Shown: piece by piece, positions 9,755 through 61,393 of the stretch
Layout of the letters: every line of letters starts with the position of its first letter
Position numbering within the stretch: position 1 is the first letter of the stretch
Program-made: the position numbers and the translations under genes
Notes under the pieces: generated by a model
The model's database searches: none
What the model was told of the DNA's origin: nothing
The model's input: only the letters and a program-made list of their open reading frames with translations
Assembly: GCA_034520885.1 (NCBI GenBank)
Contig: JAXHNE010000002.1
Span: forward strand, 4,787-68,786
Origin: Candidatus Saccharimonadota bacterium
Lineage (GTDB): Bacteria > Patescibacteriota > Saccharimonadia > Saccharimonadales > JAXHNE01
DNA length: 64,000 nt
Direction: 5' to 3'

Positions 9755-9922
9755 ATGCTTAATATATTCGTTTTACGGATAAAAACGCAAGCACGAGCAC
9801 TTACATACGACCCCTGAAGCACCTCACAAAAATTTTCAAAATTGTAACGATCGTTCAAAATTTGAGATTTTTATTTCGTGCGTGGTTAGAACGATAAGAG
9901 CTGTGGTGGTGGTAGCGTTTTT

Positions 9923-14331: not shown

Positions 14332-14520
14332 TTATTGCTCGATCTTCTTTATCTTGTTCTCGGCCGCCTTGAGCTTGGCTTCCAGCTGCTTAATCAATTC
14401 GGCGCCGCGTTCGTACTTTTTAAAAGCTTCGTCGATATCGATATCTTCCGACTCCAGCTCCGCAAACACCTCGTCCAGTTCTTCGCGTAGTTGCTGATAA
14501 GTTTTATCTGTCATGACCAT
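14332..14520 (-). CDS. xseB: exodeoxyribonuclease VII small subunit
   Basis: 62-aa helical protein; ...LREELDEVFAELESEDIDIDEAFKKYERGAELIKQL is the typical XseB pattern. Confidence 0.85.
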   Translation of the reverse strand: MVMTDKTYQQLREELDEVFAELESEDIDIDEAFKKYERGAELIKQLEAKLKAAENKIKKIEQ

Positions 14521-14935
14521 TAGTTTATAGGTTTTAGTGGTTAGATGCTAGAGATTAGGGGTTAGAGGTTAGTAGGTGGAAGGCGGTAAGCGACTTCGTC
14601 GCAATAGACGATAGATGAGAATTAATAGGTGATAGATGAGGGGTGATGGGTCGTATAGTTGGTAGGTGGCAGTTCTATAGTTCTGAGTAGTGAGTGGTGA
14701 GCTTCAGATAATACTAGAATTAATATCTAGTATTAATTCTAGTATTATTGAAACTTACCAGGCACGAACTGGAAGATAGCAGTTGGCAAGCGGGAAGCTT
14801 TTAGACCCGGAACCGCCGCCACCTCGTTTATCACCTATTAATTCTCATCTATCGTCCTATTGCCTACCGAAGTCGCCTACCTCTTATCTATCACCTATCG
14901 ACTATTATCTATTAACTCTCACCTATGCGGCTTTG
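14521..14935. mobile_element. foldback (MITE/IVS-like) element with heptamer-word arms, a long inverted repeat and a 42-bp AT palindrome
   Basis: The left half is C-poor and the right half is its G-poor complement. 14590-14634 is the inverted repeat of 14829-14876. The near-perfect palindrome is at 14708-14749. There is no ORF, and the element separates xseB from xseA. Confidence 0.7.
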
Positions 14936-17211: not shown

Positions 17212-18513
17212 ATGAAGTCACTGGCAATTTTAGGACGGCAACCGGCAATTGGCCTTGCGGAGCTGGAGTCGCTGTATGGCGCCGAAGCCGTACGACCCGT
17301 CGGCGAAAACGCCGTTACCGTTAACATCGCCCCCGATCAAATTGAGTTCAGGCGGCTGGGGGGCACGGTAAAGCTCGCCAAATTATTGACAGTTTTAGAT
17401 TTTACGAACTGGGATAAAATTGAAGATTTTCTGGCCGAGGAACTCCCCAAGCACACCTGTTGCATTACGGAAGGCAAACTGACGCTGGGGCTGAGCGCCT
17501 ACGGGTTCAAAATGAGTCCCAAAAAATTAAACGCCACTGCCCTGTCGCTGAAAAAGACCATCAAAGCCACCGACCGGCCGGTAAGAATTGTACCCAATAA
17601 GTCACTGGAGCTTTCCAGTGCACAGGTACTGCATAACAAATTATTTACCTCGCACAATTGGGAGCTCATTTTGCTGCGTGACGGCAACGAAACCTACCTG
17701 GCACAAACTACCAACGTGCAAGATATCGACGCTTACGCCGCCCGCGACCAAGCCCGGCCGGCCCGGGACGCAAAGGTCGGCATGCTCCCACCGAAATTAG
17801 CCCAAACGATAATTAATTTGGCTGTAGGCCAAATTAAAAAGATTGAAGATCGAGGACAGGAGAACGAAGAAAAAAACCCTCAATCCTCAATCCCCCATCC
17901 TCTATCAGTTTTTGATCCGTTTTGCGGAACGGGCGTGATACTACAAGAAGCGCTACTAATGGGATATCAAGTGACTGGAACGGATCTCGATGCACGTATG
18001 GTCGAATACGCCCGGCGCAACATGGACTGGCTCCAGCAAAAATGGAAGGTGGAAGGTGGAAGATGGAAGGTGGCAGGTGGCAAATGGAAGGTGGAAAATG
18101 GCGATGCAACGGATTACTCCTGGCCTGCGCTCTCAGCTTCCGGCTCTCGGCTCTCGGCTACCATCGCTTGCGAAACGTACTTGGGACGACCGTTTTCTTC
18201 CGCGCCGGATCACGCTACGCTGCAAAAAGTCATGCGTGACGTGGACACCATCCACGAAAAGTTTTTAAAAAACGTGGCCTCGCAGACGGAGTCGGGTTTT
18301 CGAATGTGCCTCGCCGTGCCGGCATGGGCACGCCACAGACAACAGACAACAGACAACAGACAACAGACTTTTAGGCATTTACCGGTGCTTGAAAAATTGA
18401 ACGAACTGGGGTATACTCGATTAAGTTTTGCTCACGCAAGAAACGAGGAGTTGATCTATCACCGAGAAGGTCAAATCGTCGGCCGTGAGCTCGTCGTTCT
18501 AAAAAGAACGTAA
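17212..18513 (+). CDS. RNA (guanine-N2-type, Trm11/UPF0020-like) methyltransferase carrying three in-frame low-complexity inserts
   Basis: N-terminal THUMP-like region and SAM motif I VFDPFCGTGVILQEALLMG. The inserts are at 17841-17906, 18038-18165 and 18335-18368. Confidence 0.7.
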   Translation: MKSLAILGRQPAIGLAELESLYGAEAVRPVGENAVTVNIAPDQIEFRRLGGTVKLAKLLTVLDFTNWDKIEDFLAEELPKHTCCITEGKLTLGLSAYGFKMSPKKLNATALSLKKTIKATDRPVRIVPNKSLELSSAQVLHNKLFTSHNWELILLRDGNETYLAQTTNVQDIDAYAARDQARPARDAKVGMLPPKLAQTIINLAVGQIKKIEDRGQENEEKNPQSSIPHPLSVFDPFCGTGVILQEALLMGYQVTGTDLDARMVEYARRNMDWLQQKWKVEGGRWKVAGGKWKVENGDATDYSWPALSASGSRLSATIACETYLGRPFSSAPDHATLQKVMRDVDTIHEKFLKNVASQTESGFRMCLAVPAWARHRQQTTDNRQQTFRHLPVLEKLNELGYTRLSFAHARNEELIYHREGQIVGRELVVLKRT

Positions 18514-21061: not shown

Positions 21062-21100
21062 GTCAACTTGCGTTCAGAACAAAGCAGGCTCGACGGTATG

Positions 21101-21600
21101 AGTACTAAACCTGGCGTCCTGACTTTGTGCCAGATTGAAATTTTATCCGCGAAGCGCCAAGGAAGCGTACTGAACGTACGGTGACTGCGACTCGTAAGGA
21201 TAAAATACTCAAGCTGGCCAAGAAACATGAATCGCGCGCCTAGTGCTCACACTTGAGTACAGTTTGGTCGTTCTTTTCGAGGAGCGGACCGAGTACTAAA
21301 CCTGGCGTCCTGACTTTGTGCCAGATTGAAATTTTATCCGCGAAGCGCCAAGGAAGCGTACTGAACGTACGGTGACTGCGACTCGTAAGGATAAAATATT
21401 CAAGCTGGCCAAGAAACATGAATCGCGCGCTTAGTGCTCACACTTGAGTACAGTTTGGTCGTTCTTTTCGAGGAGCGGACCGAGTACTAAACCTGGCGTA
21501 CTGACTTTGTGCCAGATTGAAATTTTATCCGCGAAGCGCCAAGGAGGCGTATTAATATACGGTGACTGCGACTCGTAAGGATAAAATATTCAAGCTGGCC
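21101..21600 (+). repeat. tandem repeat, 191-bp unit x about 2.6 (candidate multi-unit ncRNA)
   Basis: Units start at 21101, 21292 and 21483 and are nearly identical by eye. Each has several hairpins, including GCGTAC-TGAAC-GTACGGTGACTGCGA. Confidence 0.85.
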
Positions 21601-21605
21601 AAAGA

Positions 21606-24898: not shown

Positions 24899-25102
24899 GA
24901 TTCCAGGCTCTGAAGCAACCTGGACGAGCGTTGTGAGAATCAGGCGCCCTTGGGTGCGAGGACTGTTTGAGTAAAAATGGTGCCTGTCGGCACTATTTCT
25001 GTGAGTTCCAAGATCGTGGCTTTTCTAAAATGTTCACTATAGCTTCTTCACTGAAAACTGACAACGAACAACCGACAACTGTTATATAACTAGTTATATA
25101 AC
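24899..25102. repeat. solo copy of the 'unit-2' structured module, followed by GACAAC words and a 22-bp AT palindrome
   Basis: 24901-25008 is about 88% identical by eye to 60826-60932. GTTATATAACTAGTTATATAAC at 25081-25102 is a perfect palindrome. Confidence 0.7.
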
Positions 25103-29368: not shown

Positions 29369-29397
29369 ATTATACACTCGTGACACATGCACCACAA
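29369..29397 (-). promoter_or_regulatory. sigma70-type promoter of ftsE giving a leaderless or near-leaderless mRNA
   Basis: Minus-strand TTGTGG (29397-29392), a 17-nt spacer, then TATAAT (29374-29369) preceded by TG. Seven nucleotides later comes the ATG. Confidence 0.6.
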
Positions 29398-29460
29398 CGG
29401 GCAAAAAGGCAAACAAAGTTCGCTTTATTGCCGTTGCTCTTGGCTCAATAAGTAATTTTC
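29378..29460. repeat. 83-bp direct repeat, copy 1 (overlaps the ftsE promoter)
   Basis: Identical by eye to 29673-29755. Confidence 0.85.
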
Positions 29461-29672
29461 CTTTGTGAGTACTCCCTCACCGTATCTCGATACGCCTCAG
29501 TCCGTTCCTCAAGGAGAAATTACTTCTTGAGCTCAAGTGCATGCCTCACGAAACCCGTATATCCATATCCAATTTTCTTCTGCGGTTCTCCTTCACCGTA
29601 CGGACAAGTACGGCTCAGTCTGCGTCCTCAAAGATAAATTGAATCTGGGATCACAAATGTGAGAGTGGTTTA

Positions 29673-29755
29673 TCGTGACACATGCACCACAACGGGCAAA
29701 AAGGCAAACAAAGTTCGCTTTATTGCCGTTGCTCTTGGCTCAATAAGTAATTTTC
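29673..29755. repeat. 83-bp direct repeat, copy 2
   Basis: Identical by eye to 29378-29460, with a period of 295 bp. Confidence 0.85.
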
Positions 29756-29956
29756 GTTTGCGGTGTTCACTCACCGTACCGAAAGTACGCCTCGCTGAAA
29801 CTCCTCACGAGAAATACCAAATGAGCCTCAAGTGTGTGGCTCTGATTGCAAATCGATTATTTAAGGAGAAATTGCTTCTTGAGCTCAAGTGCAAGTCTTA
29901 GGTTACACGAATTTTTATAGCAATTATAACGGTTTTGGAAGAGCCGGATTTTTAAT

Positions 29957-51542: not shown

Positions 51543-52268
51543 TTAAGTTCCGAAACGTCTCTTTCTCGTACCGTACCAGTCTAGCGCATCCTGGAAATCT
51601 TGTAACGTAAAATCCGGCCATAGTTTTTGCGCGAAATACAGTTCGCTATACGCCGCGCGTAAAAGCATGAACCCGCTGGTGCGTTGTTCCCCGGAGGTGC
51701 GAATCACTAAATCCACCGGTGGAATCATGTCGCCTTCATACAAAAGCGAGTGCAAAACGTCCTTGCTCATGTCCTCCGGAGCGATTCTCTTTTCCAAGGC
51801 TTTTTTGTAAACGTCAATCAACTCGTCTTCCCCGCCGTAGTTAAAACACAGCGCCAACGTGCCTTTGGTATTATCTTTGGTTTTTTCTTCCGTTCGGGCA
51901 ATGGCCCGGGCCACGTTTTTGGGGATGTCGGTTTTACGCCCCAAAATTACGATTTTGATTCCCGCTTTATGAAAAGTGTCCAGGTAGTTTTCCACCGCTT
52001 TGGTGACCAACTTCATTAAATACCCGACTTCTTCTTCGGTGCGTGACCAGTTTTCGCTGGAAAACACGAACGCCGAAAGGTACTTTACGCCGCGATCAAA
52101 CGCCCCGAGCGCAATCTCCTTAAAAACTTCCGCGCCTTCCCGGTGCCCTTCCATTGTCGGCAAGCCCTTGGCTTTCGCCCACCGCCGATTACCGTCTAGA
52201 ATTATTCCAACGTGAGTGGGCACGGATTGGGGATTGAGGATTGGGGATTGAGGAGATTCAGTTGGCAT
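51543..52268 (-). CDS. uppS: isoprenyl transferase (undecaprenyl diphosphate synthase)
   Basis: HVGIILDGNRRWAKAKG and RTSGEQRTSGFMLL. The start is either ATG 52268 or GTG 52223; the 15 codons between them are encoded by heptamer-word repeat. Confidence 0.9.
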   Translation of the reverse strand: MPTESPQSPILNPQSVPTHVGIILDGNRRWAKAKGLPTMEGHREGAEVFKEIALGAFDRGVKYLSAFVFSSENWSRTEEEVGYLMKLVTKAVENYLDTFHKAGIKIVILGRKTDIPKNVARAIARTEEKTKDNTKGTLALCFNYGGEDELIDVYKKALEKRIAPEDMSKDVLHSLLYEGDMIPPVDLVIRTSGEQRTSGFMLLRAAYSELYFAQKLWPDFTLQDFQDALDWYGTRKRRFGT

Positions 52269-52626
52269 TTTTACTCCGTAAAGAACCGTTGAGTGCATGA
52301 AGCATACGGGATATTATCGCACATTCTTTCAGTATTTCATCGGCCGGTAGTCGGTATACTTTTTGTGCAGTGATCACCTGTGTTTCGAGTTCGGCCAGCG
52401 AACCAAGAGCAATATCATTAAATCGGATCGTGTCTTTGTTCCCGAACCTTTTTTGACCTTCAGCGATATTTGACGCTACCGAGACTGCCGCCCTTTTCAT
52501 CTGATCGGCAAGAGCAAATTGTTCCGTCTTTGGTAGCTGTGTAATGAGTTCATAGTTTGTCACCGCGAGCTCGACCGCTCGCTGCCACACTTCCAGCTTT
52601 TGATATTCATGAGCACCCATACTCAA
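52258..52626 (-). CDS. four-helix-bundle protein (23S rRNA intervening-sequence protein / Avd-like family)
   Basis: YQKLEVWQRAVELAV...QMKRAAVSVASNIAEGQKRFGNKD...LGSLAELETQ is the family signature. The gene is flanked by inverted heptamer-word repeats. Confidence 0.85.
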   Translation of the reverse strand: MSMGAHEYQKLEVWQRAVELAVTNYELITQLPKTEQFALADQMKRAAVSVASNIAEGQKRFGNKDTIRFNDIALGSLAELETQVITAQKVYRLPADEILKECAIISRMLHALNGSLRSKNAN

Positions 52627-53237: not shown

Positions 53238-53280
53238 TTATCCTCCAATAATTTACTGGTATCAGTATACAGGATGTAGA

Positions 53281-54100
53281 GTTTGGACGGTAGAGGCGAG
53301 GAGTTGGTAGGTAGTAGATAGGAGATCGGGGATTGAGGATTGAGGATTGAGGAAAGAGTTCTGGGTTCATAGTTCATGGATAGGGTTTAGGGGCTAGGAG
53401 TTGGAAGATGGAAGTTGGAATTTGGTAGATAGAAGATGGTAGTTGGGAGTTAGTATTTCGTAGACAGTTGTCAGTTGTCCGTCTTCAGTAGTTGCGTTGT
53501 TCCAGGCTCTGGCTGAACTGATTGGACGATACGGGCAAAACCAGCAAACAAGCCTCAAGCTTGTTTTTTATGTAGTTACAACTGCCCTCGGCAGTTGTTC
53601 ACTTGGGCTCCAGGCTTCGAAAGCCTCCCCGGTAGTAGAACCAGTTCACTACGGGGCACGCCTGAGGAGCGAGTGTCAAAAGCACAATTTCTGCCGAGGA
53701 CTTGTTTGAGGGGTTGCCGGCTGAAGTATTTTGGCATACCCCGAGTTGTCCGAGCATTGTGCTTTTTGATAATGAGATCATAAAGAGGTTTTCGCGCCTG
53801 TGGCCTTTTTGGGGCACTTTTTGGCTACGCAAAAAGTGTCTGGGGGTGAAGCTGACCAGTCAGCTTCAATAATGACAGAACAAGATAGTGGGTCGGGAAA
53901 GCAAAAGCGAAGCTTTGCGCCGAAAAAACATACTTTGGGGCACTTTTTGGCCATGCAAAAAGTGCCTGACGGGAAGCTGACCAGACAGCTTCATATAATT
54001 CGTTACTGCCTACGATATTGATCGTATAGTTACAGTTGTCTAGCCCCTGTTGCAGAGCAATAATACTAGAATTAATACTAGTATTAATTCTAGTATTATT
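53281..54100. mobile_element. one-armed member of the foldback family: heptamer-word arm, roughly 590-bp structured non-coding core, perfect 42-bp AT palindrome
   Basis: Word arm at 53281-53470, hairpin modules at 53497-53995, palindrome at 54059-54100. The only ORFs here are short and inconsistent. Confidence 0.7.
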
Positions 54101-56925: not shown

Positions 56926-57276
56926 ATGAAAAAGGATATTCATCCCCAGAACTACCGCCCCGTGGTGTTTCAGGACTTAAACAACGACTGGGCAATTTTG
57001 ACCCGCTCCACCGCCGCGAGCGAGGAAACCATTAAGTGGGAGGACGGCAACGAATACCCGCTGGTAAAAGTACACATCTCCAGCAGTTCGCACCCCTTCT
57101 TCACCGGCCAGGAAAAACTGGTCGACATTGAAGGCCGAGTTGATAAGTTCAAGGCACGCCAAGATGCCGCCAAGTCCAAAGCCGACGCCATGAAAAAAGC
57201 CGCCGGCAAACAGCGCAAAAAACAACCCAAAGCCGACGAAACCCAGAAGATGGGTACGCTCAAGCGCAATAAGTAG
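56926..57276 (+). CDS. rpmE: 50S ribosomal protein L31 (type B, no Cys motif) with Lys-rich C-terminal extension
   Basis: [17 protein letters not shown]...[20 protein letters not shown]. Confidence 0.9.
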
Positions 57277-57312
57277 TTGACAGTAATCAGTTGACAGTAG
57301 ACAGTTGTTGAT

Positions 57313-57651
57313 ATGAGTTCGTACCGTGACCTAAAAGTCTGGAAAGATTCATTTGAGCTAACAAAATTAGTTTATAAAGCTACTGTCAAGTTACCTTCAA
57401 ATGAAAAGTTCGGTCTCGCTTCACAAATACAGCGTTGCGCAGTCTCGATTCCGTCAAATATTGCAGAAGGCCAACAACGAAAAGGTGCAAACGAATTTAA
57501 ACAGTTTCTTGGGATAGCCCGCGGTTCTGCGGCCGAACTTTCAACGCAACTTCTGCTTGCCCAGGACATCTATTCTATCGAACTGGAAATACTTGTAGAA
57601 AAAACTGAAGAAATTCAAAAAATGCTCTATAGCTTGCAGCAAAAACTGTAA
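57313..57651 (+). CDS. four-helix-bundle protein (23S rRNA intervening-sequence protein / Avd-like family)
   Basis: YRDLKVWKDSFELTKLVY...QIQRCAVSIPSNIAEGQQRKGANEF...GSAAELSTQ. The gene is flanked by GTTGACAGT / CTGTAACCT word repeats. Confidence 0.85.
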   Translation: MSSYRDLKVWKDSFELTKLVYKATVKLPSNEKFGLASQIQRCAVSIPSNIAEGQQRKGANEFKQFLGIARGSAAELSTQLLLAQDIYSIELEILVEKTEEIQKMLYSLQQKL

Positions 57652-57702
57652 ACTGTAACCTGTAACCTGTAAACTAACCATTGTTACCTGTAAACTAGCC
57701 AT

Positions 57703-58753
57703 ATGGATAAAAAGGAACAAGACCTACGCGACGAGCTCGCCGACATTATGAAACAGCTGGAAGATCCGGCTATTTTCAGCACGCCCGAGTATCCCAAAAT
57801 GCCGCCAAAAAAAGATAGAAGACATACTCGCGCTTTACGATGAACTGGCAAAGAGCAAAGAGCAAAGAGCAAAGAGCAAAGAGCTTCTGGACTCTGACGA
57901 TGAAGAATTGGCCGAACTCGCCAAAAGCGAGATAGAAGATCTGGATTTGAAAATTGAAACCCTCGAACTTAAACTAACGGAGGCTTTGACTCCAAAGGAT
58001 CCCAACGACGAAAAAGATGCCATTATAGAAATTCGCGCCGCGGCCGGTGGCGATGAAGCCGCCCTGTTCGCCGGCGAGCTATACCGCATGTACGCCCGTT
58101 GGTGCGAAACGCACGGCTACAAAATAGAACTTATCAACGAAAGTCCCGCGGAAGTCGGCGGGTTCAAAGAAATCAGCTTTTTGGTGCGCGGCGAAGACAC
58201 CTATAAATTCTTTAAGTTCGAAGGCGGCGTACACCGCGTTCAGCGCGTGCCGGAAACCGAAAGCCAAGGCCGCGTGCACACCAGCACCGTGACCGTGGCG
58301 GTCATGCCCGAAGCCGAAGAAACCGACATTGAAATCGACCAAAACGACCTTCGCGTAGATGTCTACCGAGCCGGCGGCCACGGCGGGCAATCCGTAAATA
58401 CTACGGACTCCGCCGTACGCATCACCCACGTGCCAACGGGGGTCGTTGTTACCAACCAGGACGAAAAATCGCAAATCAAAAACAAGCTCAAAGCCATGAA
58501 CGTATTACGTTCCCGCCTGCTCCAGCACAAAATTGACGAAGAAAACGCCAAGCTATCAGCTGAACGCAAAAAGCTGGTCGGCAGCGGCGACCGCAGCGAG
58601 AAAATCCGCACCTACAACTTCCCGCAGGACCGCATTACCGATCACCGTATTGGCTACTCCCGCAGCAACATCCCCGGAGCTTTGGACGGCCAAATAGACG
58701 ACCTCATAGAAGAACTCCACAAAGCCGAACACGAACTAATGAGTAACGAGTAA
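57703..58753 (+). CDS. prfA: peptide chain release factor 1, reading frame broken by one extra base at an A7 run (57807-57813)
   Basis: Frame 1 (57703-57813) encodes MDKKEQDLRDELADIMKQLEDPAIFSTPEYPKMPPKK. Frame 2 continues IEDILALYDEL...PKDPND...GGHGGQSVNTTDSAVRITH... to 58753. Frame 1 stops at 57841. Confidence 0.85.
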
Positions 58754-59558: not shown

Positions 59559-59637
59559 ATTTAATACTATGTTAATTTAGTATATTTGTACATAATTGTC
59601 AAGCATTTTTATGGGTTTTGTGGTATACTCACCTCTG

Positions 59638-60513
59638 ATGATTACCATTTCTAGGTGGATGGCTAAAAAAACTAAAGCGCTAGAGAGCGCCGGGATTTCC
59701 ACCGCTCGACTGGATTGTTTGGTGCTTTTAGAGGACGCGACCGGTAAAGATCGTTCATGGTTGCTGGCGCATCCGGAGCACGAGTTAGAAAGTTCAAAAG
59801 TTAAAAAGCTGAAAGAGCAAGTTCAGCGGCGGGCTAAGCATGAGCCGCTGGCCTATATTCGTGGGCGGAGTGCTTTTTATGGCCGGGAGTTTTTGGTGAA
59901 CGAACATACTTTGCAGCCCCGGCCGGAAACGGAAACGATGATCGACCACTTAAAATCACTGTACAAGGTTGAACCTTGTACAGAAGCTAAAAGCTCTGAG
60001 CGAAAAGCTCTGAGCATAGTAGATGTAGGGACTGGATCTGGTTGTATTGGGATTACCGCCAAGCTGGAGCTGCCGGATGCGGAAGTGTATGCCACGGACA
60101 TTTCCGAAGAATGCTTAAAAATAGCCCGAAAAAACGCCCGAAAACTAAAAGCCAATGTGGAGTTCCACAAAGCTAATCTCCTCCTCTCCCAAAAAAATAA
60201 TTCTCACTTTTTGAACGATCGTTCAAAAAGTGAGAATATTGTTTTGCTGGCTAATTTACCTTATGTTCCGGAAGGTTTCACTATAAACCAAGCCGCGATG
60301 TTCGAGCCGGACGTTGCCATATTCGGCGGTAAGGACGGATTGGATTACTACCGCGAGTTATTCGCCCAGATTGAAACGCTAAAAACTAAACCACATTTCA
60401 TTTTTACCGAAAGCCTACCAACGCAGCACAAAGACCTGACTGCAATCGCAGAAAAACACGGGTTTCGGCTTCATGAATGCCAGGATTTTATTCAAGTATT
60501 TATTAGGCGTTAG
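59638..60513 (+). CDS. prmC: release-factor glutamine methyltransferase PrmC/HemK
   Basis: EPLAYIRGRSAFYGREF, VDVGTGSGCIGI, and NLPYV in place of NPPY. ATG at 59638. The stop TAG (60511-60513) lies within the terminal motif of the downstream foldback element. Confidence 0.85.
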   Translation: MITISRWMAKKTKALESAGISTARLDCLVLLEDATGKDRSWLLAHPEHELESSKVKKLKEQVQRRAKHEPLAYIRGRSAFYGREFLVNEHTLQPRPETETMIDHLKSLYKVEPCTEAKSSERKALSIVDVGTGSGCIGITAKLELPDAEVYATDISEECLKIARKNARKLKANVEFHKANLLLSQKNNSHFLNDRSKSENIVLLANLPYVPEGFTINQAAMFEPDVAIFGGKDGLDYYRELFAQIETLKTKPHFIFTESLPTQHKDLTAIAEKHGFRLHECQDFIQVFIRR

Positions 60514-61393
60514 ATGCTAGACGTTAGAGGGTAGAGGGTAGAAGTTGGAAGTTGGAATTTGGAAGGTGGAAGATGGTAGGCGACTTCTTCGCAAAAGGTG
60601 AGAGTTAATAGATAAGGGTTAATAGATGATAGATGAAGGGTGGTAGATGGAAGATGGAAGATAGAAGATGGAAGATGGGGAAAATAATAAGTAAAACATA
60701 AATAGTAAGTTTCCGGGCTCTGCCTGAAACGATTGGACGGCGCCTCGGGTAAAAACCGACAAACAAGCTTCAAGCTTGTTTTTTATGTAGTTACAACTGC
60801 TCCGGAGCAGTTGTTCACTTGGCCTCCAGGCTCTGGAACAACCTGGACGGACGTTGTGGGAATCAGGCGCCCTTGGGTACGAGGACTGTCTGAGCAGAAA
60901 TGGTGCCTGGCGGCACCATTTCTGTGAGTTTCACAGTAAGCCTGATTGTGACAACGGCCGTAGCTGTTGTTTCAGCCGCCTGTCGGCTTTTGTTGCAATC
61001 TTTTGCCGACTCAAAAGATTGCTGACGGGGAGCTGGTCAGTCAGCTTCGCTATTGGCGGAACAAGATAGTGGGTCGGGAAAGCAAAAGCGAAGCTTTGCG
61101 CCGAAAAAACATACTTTGGGGCACTTTTTGGCCATGCAAAAAGTGCCTGGTGGTGAAGCTGACCAGACAGCTTCTATTAGTAGTTACCTACTACTTTGAT
61201 TGTATAGTTATGGCCGTATCGCCCTTGTTAAAACGTAATAATACTAGTATTAACTCTAGTATTAATACTAGTATTATTTTTACTAACTATGAGGTGCTAT
61301 CTTCCATATCCTAAATTCCATCTTCCAAGCACTATCTTCTAGCCCCTGTCTTCAATCTTCAATCCCCAATCTTCATTCCGTAACAACTATGAA
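60509..61393. mobile_element. complete foldback-family element: two inverted heptamer-word arms, structured core, 42-bp AT palindrome
   Basis: Left arm 60509-60700 (C-poor), core 60712-61176, palindrome 61237-61278, right arm 61285-61393 (G-poor, the reverse complement of arm-type sequence also seen at 53300-53440). It fills the whole prmC-htrA convergent spacer. Confidence 0.75.

Follow-up and report, generated by a model that had tools for sequence, protein, structure and literature searches.

Foldback units between housekeeping genes

The stretch of DNA analysed here (the window, 64,000 nucleotides of contig JAXHNE010000002.1) is a housekeeping region of a Candidatus Saccharibacteria metagenome-assembled genome, with frr, tsf, rpsB, rpmE, prfA, prmC, htrA, uppS and rseP as flanking genes. 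Two elements with cores at 53497-53995 and 60712-61176, together with a solo copy at 24899-25012, adjoin frr, a small membrane open reading frame (ORF), prmC, htrA and ctpA. The cores are tandem, same-orientation sets of units of a lineage-restricted, previously undescribed family of non-coding foldback repeats, found so far in three uncultured Saccharibacteria genomes: that of the window and those of two relatives, L044 (Logan assembly of SRR28403175; RRF 79% identical to that of the window) and L049 (NCBI GCA_038316995.1; ctpA 70% identical). These homologs were all reached via protein-anchored look-ups of neighbouring genes. Tandem arrays of heptamers (GGAAGAT, GGATTGA and similar) border the units, and heptamer arrays also occur within ORFs of this genome.

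A preliminary description of this DNA had proposed that the three loci share four modular parts. All four are present in the sequence, with self-BLAST E-values of 1e-17 to 1e-53. When the cores are compared with the window, 53857-53992 matches 61038-61174 (94% over 137 nt, E 1e-53) and 53545-53616 matches 60760-60832 (92%, E 4e-20), while module c matches its own other copies at E 1e-10 to 4e-17. Module c occurs twice per element as described, at 53808-53868, 53934-53993, about 60990-61050 and 61115-61174, and the run of identity between 53878-53968 and 61059-61149 is exactly 91 nt, with no extension possible. The likeness drawn between 60826-60932 and 24901-25008 is real (60825-60930 against 24902-25007, 89.6% over 106 nt, E 2e-30). 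The modules are best regarded as portions of larger foldback units that are closed by the pairing of conserved 5' and 3' motifs, and "unit 2" is the 5' half of such a full unit. Scanned for perfect inverted repeats with stems of 9 bp or more and loops of 3-8 nt, the whole 64-kb window yields about 19 distinct hairpins; 10 of these fall within the two cores, whose combined length is 1.5% of the window.

Element 1 is composed of U1a, X/c1 and d/c2, and element 2 of U1b, U2aY/c3 and d/c4. The individual features are as follows.

24902-25012, plus strand: solo copy U2b, the 5' half of a U2-type unit only, lacking the 3' closing motif and the c hairpin
53499-53606, plus strand: short unit U1a, with the 5' motif TCCAGGCTCTG at 53501 and a hairpin at 53546-53566 followed by T6
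53578-53598, plus strand: second hairpin of U1a, perfect, 9 bp
53609-53806, plus strand: full-length foldback unit X, in which 5' TCCAGGCT (53609-53616) pairs with 3' GCCTGTGG (53796-53803)
Interior of unit X, plus strand: long stem including GTCAAAAGCACAAT/ATTGTGCTTTTTGA, apical hairpin at 53710-53742; homolog in L044
53813-53867, plus strand: c1 hairpin (53813-53840, 11 bp, one G-T pair) and tail hairpin GAAGCTGACCAGTCAGCTTC (53848-53867)
53869-53992, plus strand: unit d+c2, with d at 53869-53933 (91-nt run from 53878), c2 hairpin at 53939-53966 and tail at 53973-53992
60200-60237, no strand assigned: c-related palindrome of 38 nt with a perfect 15-bp stem, ATTCTCACTTTTTGA-acgatcgt-TCAAAAAGTGAGAAT, central AACGATCGTT
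60711-60822, plus strand: U1b, with the 5' motif TCCGGGCTCTG at 60712 and a hairpin at 60761-60781 followed by T6; 82% identical to U1a
60793-60814, plus strand: U1b palindrome, 22 nt, perfect
60825-60990, plus strand: full-length foldback unit U2a+Y, in which 5' TCCAGGCTCTGGAACAAC pairs with GTTGTTTCAGCC-GCCTGTCGG (to 60986); apical hairpin at 60895-60924
60995-61048, plus strand: c3 hairpin (60995-61022) and variant tail GGAGCTGGTCAGTCAGCTTC (61029-61048)
61050-61174, plus strand: unit d+c4, with c4 hairpin at 61120-61147 and tail at 61155-61174; 92% identical to d+c2, 91 nt identical

The architecture of a full unit was derived by aligning and folding four full-length copies, namely X+c1 and U2a+Y+c3 of the window and the units of L044 and L049. 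A full unit is about 200-260 nt long, and units of the family span roughly 110-260 bases. The 5' end TCCAGGCTCTGGAA pairs with 3' TTTCAGCGCCTGTGG, closing a long irregular stem of variable sequence that is topped by a hairpin, and the apical hairpin within this stem is flanked by GAGGAYTKGTYTGAG and GAGTT. The conserved 3' segment reads TTTCAGC-GCCTGTGG. In all four full-length units the helices P0 and P1 are formed by 5' TCCAGGC(T)CTGGAA paired with 3' TTTCAG(C)GCCTG(T)GG; in unit X, P1 is replaced on both sides, with CGAAAGCCTC pairing with GAGGTTTTCG. This terminal helix is imperfect and comprises 15-20 paired positions, counting G-U pairs and bulges. The closing duplexes of the four units have energies of -17.7 to -24.0 kcal/mol, random windows pair equally well with the same 5' segment in fractions of 0.005, 0.007, 0.058 and 0.013, and minimum-free-energy folds show the same closed architecture. 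On the 3' side of the closing helix follow a CTTTTTG tract and the 11-bp c hairpin, which is succeeded in the window copies only by the tail palindrome GAAGCTGACCAGNCAGCTTC. The c hairpin sits outside the foldback, and the 5' and 3' motifs are not two copies of one repetitive extragenic palindromic (REP) sequence.

Besides full units, the window holds short (U1), 5'-less (d+c) and truncated (U2b) derivatives. U1a has no partner motif for the closing pairing. The second hairpin of U1 had been described as beginning at 53577 in the first copy and as having a 10-bp stem with a 2-nt loop in the second; it is paired in both copies, starts at 53578 in the first, and in the second consists of a 9-bp stem with a 4-nt loop, forming the perfect 22-nt palindrome. 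Between c3 and c2/c4, four stem positions are changed on both sides. The solo copy contains G-T and A-C stem positions and an apical stem with two unpaired positions, and its folding is no stronger than that of shuffles (z -0.3); it is a truncated, decaying copy. U2a and U2b differ for the most part by transitions, which run both ways. Discrete modules turn up between genes in varying combinations, as in mosaic repeats of the BOX or bacterial interspersed mosaic element (BIME) type: the solo copy is half of a U2 unit, and L044 and L049 each carry one unit without the tail. The sequence GAAGCTGACCAGACAG (53973-53988 and 61155-61170) presumably equals the first 16 nt of Escherichia coli RNase P RNA, which we treat as a coincidence; here no match to the Rfam RNase P models was obtained, and the local fold is a simple hairpin.

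Insertions, homologs and conserved pairing

Relative to related genomes, the cores are insertions. At the frr site, only about 30-57 nt separate the small ORF after tsf from frr, or from a short frr-overlapping ORF, in L030, L032, L046 and L051, whereas the spacer of the window measures about 880 nt and lies exactly between the upstream stop codon and the promoter/leader TGTATACTnnTATCTGTAAATTGGAG. The ctpA-pyrG gap is 74-84 nt long in L048 and L050, whereas in the window it holds an additional 242-aa gene besides the solo unit; together with the frr site, this gives empty, tightly packed sites in six relatives. Between prmC and htrA the relatives carry a Wzy_C gene, in whose place the window has element 2. 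Gene order on either side of each element is the same as in the relatives, which indicates that the 91-nt repeat caused no mis-join. Furthermore, an independent Logan assembly, L029 (SRR26473340), matches the window exactly upstream of frr and stops inside the heptamers that flank element 1; this independent match, ending where it does, indicates that the repeat context is real and breaks short-read assemblies. The leader TGTATACTnnTATCTGTAAATTGGAG is itself strongly conserved directly upstream of frr (window 53238-53275, L030 2440-2480, L032 9965-10000, L046 3232-3264), and in L044 (2549-2580) and L051 (1090-1120) it stands upstream of a 53-67-aa ORF overlapping the frr start.

The frr site of L044 has a 468-nt spacer with a homolog of 53609-53846 in the same orientation (80% identity over 97 nt, 78% over 49 nt). 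In L049 the unit begins with TCCAGGCTCTGG and has the same c hairpin at its other end, 5 nt past the stop codon of ctpA and in antisense orientation to that gene. The locus varies with the genome: upstream of frr in both the window and L044, behind ctpA in L049. When the window is compared with L044 at the nucleotide level, frr is 72% identical, tsf 69%, uppS 67%, rseP 63% and the small ORF 51%. Unit X, at 80%, is therefore better conserved than its coding neighbours, which reflects either constraint or more recent common ancestry. An accessory protein common to the units was sought and rejected, as the adjoining ORFs, of 242 aa in the window, of 114 aa in L049 and of 53 aa in L044, show no relation to one another and no Pfam match. 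Likewise rejected was a derivation of the cores from decayed neighbour genes such as Wzy_C, for which tblastn and blastx gave no signal and no remnant was seen. A further relative, L045 (RRF 82% identical), carries an unrelated 369-nt insertion (595-962) between tsf and the small ORF, with a long hairpin, CCATGTGAGAATGTGAGAGG...CCTCTCACATGG, inside it. Insertions seem to land repeatedly in the spacers of the tsf/frr gene cluster.

As read from the aligned sequences, the earlier observation that pairing is kept while the stem sequence changes stands, with changes on both sides of stems both within the window and between species. Across six copies of the c hairpin from three genomes, 98.5% of cells are paired and 5 of the 11 pairs are changed on both sides; the covariation score was reached by none of 500 shuffles, and slid controls fall to 33-62% pairing. 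One c stem position shows G-C, G-U, A-U and C-G across the copies. For unit X, RNAalifold comparison of the window with L044 gives 47 pairs, seven of them changed on both sides and none broken, and the apical 5-bp stem is wholly replaced (GGGGU/ACCCC against AAACC/GGUUU). These counts rest on too few sequences for a test of the R-scape type, and perfect DNA palindromes kept for non-RNA reasons would give the same counts.

That the cores match no known RNA family, as first described, is supported by Rfam. Rfam 15 at gathering thresholds gave 0 hits in the whole window (families including 6S, RNase P, SRP, tmRNA, ribozymes, HEARO and group I/II introns), and E-value mode returned only miRNA and snoRNA noise at 12-21 bits against cut-offs of 36-200. 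L044 and L049 likewise gave 0 Rfam hits at E<=1, and ARAGORN found 0 tRNA or tmRNA genes in the window. With no Rfam or ARAGORN match, 6S RNA, tmRNA and RNase P RNA were rejected as identities. A diversity-generating retroelement was dismissed on the grounds that the U2a/U2b differences, being mostly transitions both ways, are not adenine-specific and that the window has no reverse transcriptase, and a retron msr/msd on the grounds that no reverse transcriptase lies downstream, the flanks being frr, the small membrane ORF, prmC, htrA and ctpA. In the literature searched here, no interspersed repeat family or lineage-specific structured RNA of the Candidate Phyla Radiation (CPR)/Patescibacteria turned up.

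Other repeats in the window

The 38-nt palindrome at 60200-60237 lies in frame inside prmC (59596-60513, plus strand), where it adds seven amino acids, FLNDRSK, relative to the prmC of L032. It has the same 9-nt arms, CACTTTTTG/CAAAAAGTG, as the c hairpins, and in this comparison it looks like an in-frame palindrome insertion of the Rickettsia palindromic element (RPE) kind. The presence of c-type arms in frame inside prmC fits a DNA-level palindromic repeat and is not expected of an RNA gene. An imperfect relative of the palindrome is situated at 9829-9876.

Two genes for PF05635 "23S rRNA intervening sequence proteins", four-helix bundles with a weak bAvd-like match, lie at 52258-52626 (minus strand) and 57313-57651 (plus strand). 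They are inserted between frr and uppS and between rpmE and prfA, respectively, and both are missing from L030, L032 and L044. Tandem heptamers border them at 52224-52254 and at 57275-57307, 57643-57702 and 57848-57884. Heptamer arrays (TGGAAGG, GCTCTCG, ACAGACA and others) also occur inside a 433-aa methyltransferase-like ORF (17212-18513), at 17841-17906, 18031-18122, 18129-18159 and 18335-18368, and apparently encode repetitive peptide insertions there.

Three heptamer-flanked elements, at 14520-14930, at 53262-53460 plus 54056-54100 and at 60503-60690 plus 61234-61380, have in common an array of AT-rich 12-mer palindromes (TAATACTAGTAT, three times) that scores as a bidirectional promoter. 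A GTATAGT box stands 35-60 nt upstream of the array in each (14653, 54024 and 61202). Foldback units are absent from the element at 14.5 kb. Elsewhere, a 191-nt tandem repeat (2.6 copies, 97% identity, 21100-21602) occupies the 647-nt gap between an FHA-domain gene and a response-regulator gene, a gap of only 83-139 nt in L048 and L049. Direct repeats are found near the 5' end of an ftsE-like gene and in the next intergenic gap, pairing 29378-29465 with 29673-29760 (88 nt, 99%) and 29511-29567 with 29863-29919 (57 nt, 79%).

Interpretation and comparison with known systems

We postulate, with moderate confidence, that the units constitute a structured modular repeat family resembling REP, BIME or BOX elements or MITEs (miniature inverted-repeat transposable elements), which duplicates or moves at the DNA level. 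In favour of it stand the insertions relative to empty sites, their position right behind a stop codon, the different loci occupied in different genomes, the terminal complementarity of all four full-length units, the mosaic arrangement with its degenerate copies, the in-frame prmC palindrome, the equally strong folding of both strands, the enrichment of hairpins in the cores and the lack of any match to a known RNA family. The nested palindromic modules would duplicate or move as DNA and come to rest in the handful of bases that separate a stop codon from the following promoter or gene end. Their stems may be kept because the fold, as single-stranded DNA or as RNA, is needed for propagation, or they may be regenerated by palindrome-templated repair. 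Once settled, the hairpins would probably act as terminators or 3'-end stabilisers of the flanking transcripts, a candidate example being the U1 hairpin and T-run between the convergent prmC and htrA.

Several observations weigh against this interpretation. Among the approximately 65 ORFs of the 64-kb window, Pfam annotation shows no transposase, REP-associated tyrosine transposase (RAYT), integrase, reverse transcriptase or Cas protein, and no target-site duplication is recognisable when filled and empty sites are compared. As the c hairpin lies outside the foldback, the units are asymmetric, unlike classical MITEs. Neither core has a blastn match among PLSDB plasmids or INPHARED phages. An exact-pattern scan of 185,579 species genomes for the window-specific tail palindrome gave only chance matches, 28 in number, all single and mostly in unrelated coding sequence; in JGI metagenomes, a scan with the flanking AT-rich palindrome instead of a core motif gave three unrelated AT-rich coding matches, and two exact-pattern scans of viral contigs (tail and U2 core) gave chance matches or none. 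Furthermore, in each of the four units the unit-sense strand gives the more stable closing helix, by 0.7-3 kcal/mol, several one-sided changes in unit X stay paired solely as G-U on that strand, and the combination of both-side stem changes with conservation of this syntenic unit above the flanking coding genes is the pattern expected from purifying selection on a functional RNA.

These last points favour a second explanation, which we consider possible but less than an even prospect, namely that the units are non-coding RNA genes on the plus strand, either a multi-copy "sibling" small RNA family or cis-antisense RNAs. The closing helix would then belong to an RNA of about 200 nt with the c hairpin as its 3' end, and U1 would be a small RNA of about 70 nt terminated by its hairpin and U6. 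Such genes would agree with the stem covariation within and between genomes, with the long-range imperfect helices that include G-U pairs, and with the canonical hairpin and T6 of both U1 copies. This hairpin and T6, as first described, are present in both copies; a consensus scan flags them as terminator-like on both strands and not, as had been stated, on the plus strand only. All units of the window lie on the plus strand, opposite to local gene orientation and GC skew, and the 3' end of every unit faces the 3' end of a convergent gene. A -10-like TGTTTACT stands 10 nt upstream of the solo copy, and no plus-strand gene follows it; this box resembles nGTATACT, the apparent usual -10 box of this genome, which is found 8-90 nt upstream of several genes. 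Against RNA genes, no promoter-like box was found upstream of the remaining units, and the c hairpin lacks a U-tail on either strand, the hairpin with a T-run being confined to U1. Fold z-scores relative to dinucleotide shuffles (plus/minus -4.99/-5.92 and -7.93/-7.39 for the two cores) place both strands of both cores far beyond the shuffles with no strand preference, and the excess of G-T over A-C positions in strong short hairpins (four against two) is not significant. The reverse strand of unit X, too, gives a consensus structure (-29.2 against -38.2 kcal/mol), and neither folding energy nor G-U counts assigned a strand. Moreover, the solo copy is truncated and in decay, arms of the c type are found within the prmC coding sequence, and relatives with empty sites manage without units. 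Of the novel non-coding RNA that the preliminary description had proposed, the non-coding and highly structured character is retained, whereas the arms inside prmC speak against an RNA gene. A more specific version, which we regard as rather doubtful, would make the units a new structured RNA class particular to a Saccharibacteria (CPR) lineage, a closed rod of about 200 nt with a 3' hairpin, selected at the frr locus in species whose nucleotide identity is down to about 70%, with transcription running antisense to the 3' end of the neighbouring gene. Such a class might work with the PF05635 (bAvd-like) proteins, whose genes are inserted twice and are likewise heptamer-flanked.

It is unlikely, in our assessment, that the stems are by-products of palindrome biology without selection on structure, in which intrastrand template switching would correct quasi-palindromes to perfect ones and different small palindromes would enter the same hotspots again and again, so mimicking compensation. 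Most stems are indeed unbulged, perfect Watson-Crick helices of 9-13 bp, stems are exchanged as wholes instead of being altered stepwise (GGGGTTGCC/GGCATACCCC against AAACCTTCT/AGAAGGTTT), and the genome is rich in heptamer arrays, 12-mer AT palindromes and the like, including the prmC palindrome. However, P0 and P1 join segments about 150-200 nt apart, include bulges as well as G-U pairs, and persist across four units drawn from three genomes, which local template switching explains poorly, and a c1 stem position passes through a G-C, G-T, A-T series across copies. That the cores encode small proteins is very improbable. The statement that the short ORFs use different frames across the identical stretch applies to the longest ORFs only, as one frame is open in both elements (53800-54021 and 61053-61199) and reads EQDSGSGKQKRSFAPKKHTLGHFLAMQKVP. 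This shared frame would speak for a protein, yet it breaks at an indel immediately after the identical run, its starts differ (ATG and TTG) and lack an evident Shine-Dalgarno sequence, and the units of L044 and L049 have no conserved ORF. A concatenated six-frame query of all cores found no similar protein among 5.8 billion called proteins, and there is no likeness to the neighbouring genes of the relatives.

Genomes of the CPR/Patescibacteria are small and tightly packed, and here insertions of about 880 nt occupy otherwise 30-60-nt spacers of a core translation-gene cluster. If mobile, the units would offer a handle on the invasion and persistence of repeats in a streamlined episymbiont genome, including the in-frame insertion in prmC; if RNAs, they would add a new family to a phylum in which hardly any regulatory RNA has been characterised. 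Either way, they break short-read assemblies at conserved loci, as in the L029 contig.

Among known systems, tandem small RNA arrays and rod-like RNAs such as NsiR1 and 6S RNA share with these units the head-to-tail arrangement of structured units and an approximately 200-nt closed rod with terminal pairing. They differ in that the present units have no Rfam match, no large central bubble, no promoter for each unit and a terminator in U1 only. Small dispersed repeats of cyanobacteria contain very small palindromes nested in larger repeats, as the present units do. Cyanobacterial STRR (short tandemly repeated repetitive) heptamer arrays and heptamer repeats of the TAACTGA type (PMC4679880) have a parallel in the tandem heptamer arrays between which the present units lie. 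The host belongs to another phylum, however, and the heptamers and foldback units are without counterpart in the collections searched. RPEs are palindromes that can lie in frame within essential protein genes of a reduced genome, with the 38-nt prmC palindrome as the parallel here (PMC10969869). RPEs measure 100-150 bp, whereas the c-like palindrome is small and occurs once in a gene, and every full unit is intergenic.

BOX elements of Streptococcus pneumoniae and Correia/MITE elements of Neisseria are likewise modular (in the boxA-boxB-boxC style) with varied order and number; they too lie between genes, fold strongly and may bear promoter or terminator signals (PMC10969869). They differ from the present units in sequence, without similarity, and the terminal inverted repeats here are short and imperfect, with no target-site duplication or parent insertion sequence found. 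REPINs, which are mobilised by RAYT transposases in Proteobacteria (PMC3116915, PMC3337134), and the related REP and BIME repeats offer a comparable picture of short extragenic palindromes that build hairpin doublets and mosaic clusters behind stop codons in compact genomes, with stems that are maintained and can serve as terminators or mRNA stabilisers (PMC3116915, PMC3337134). By contrast, the window contains neither a GTAG-type REP head nor a RAYT gene, and its host is a CPR bacterium with a reduced genome; the present units are also longer, and are distinguished by a conserved 5'/3' closing helix and an external 3' hairpin.

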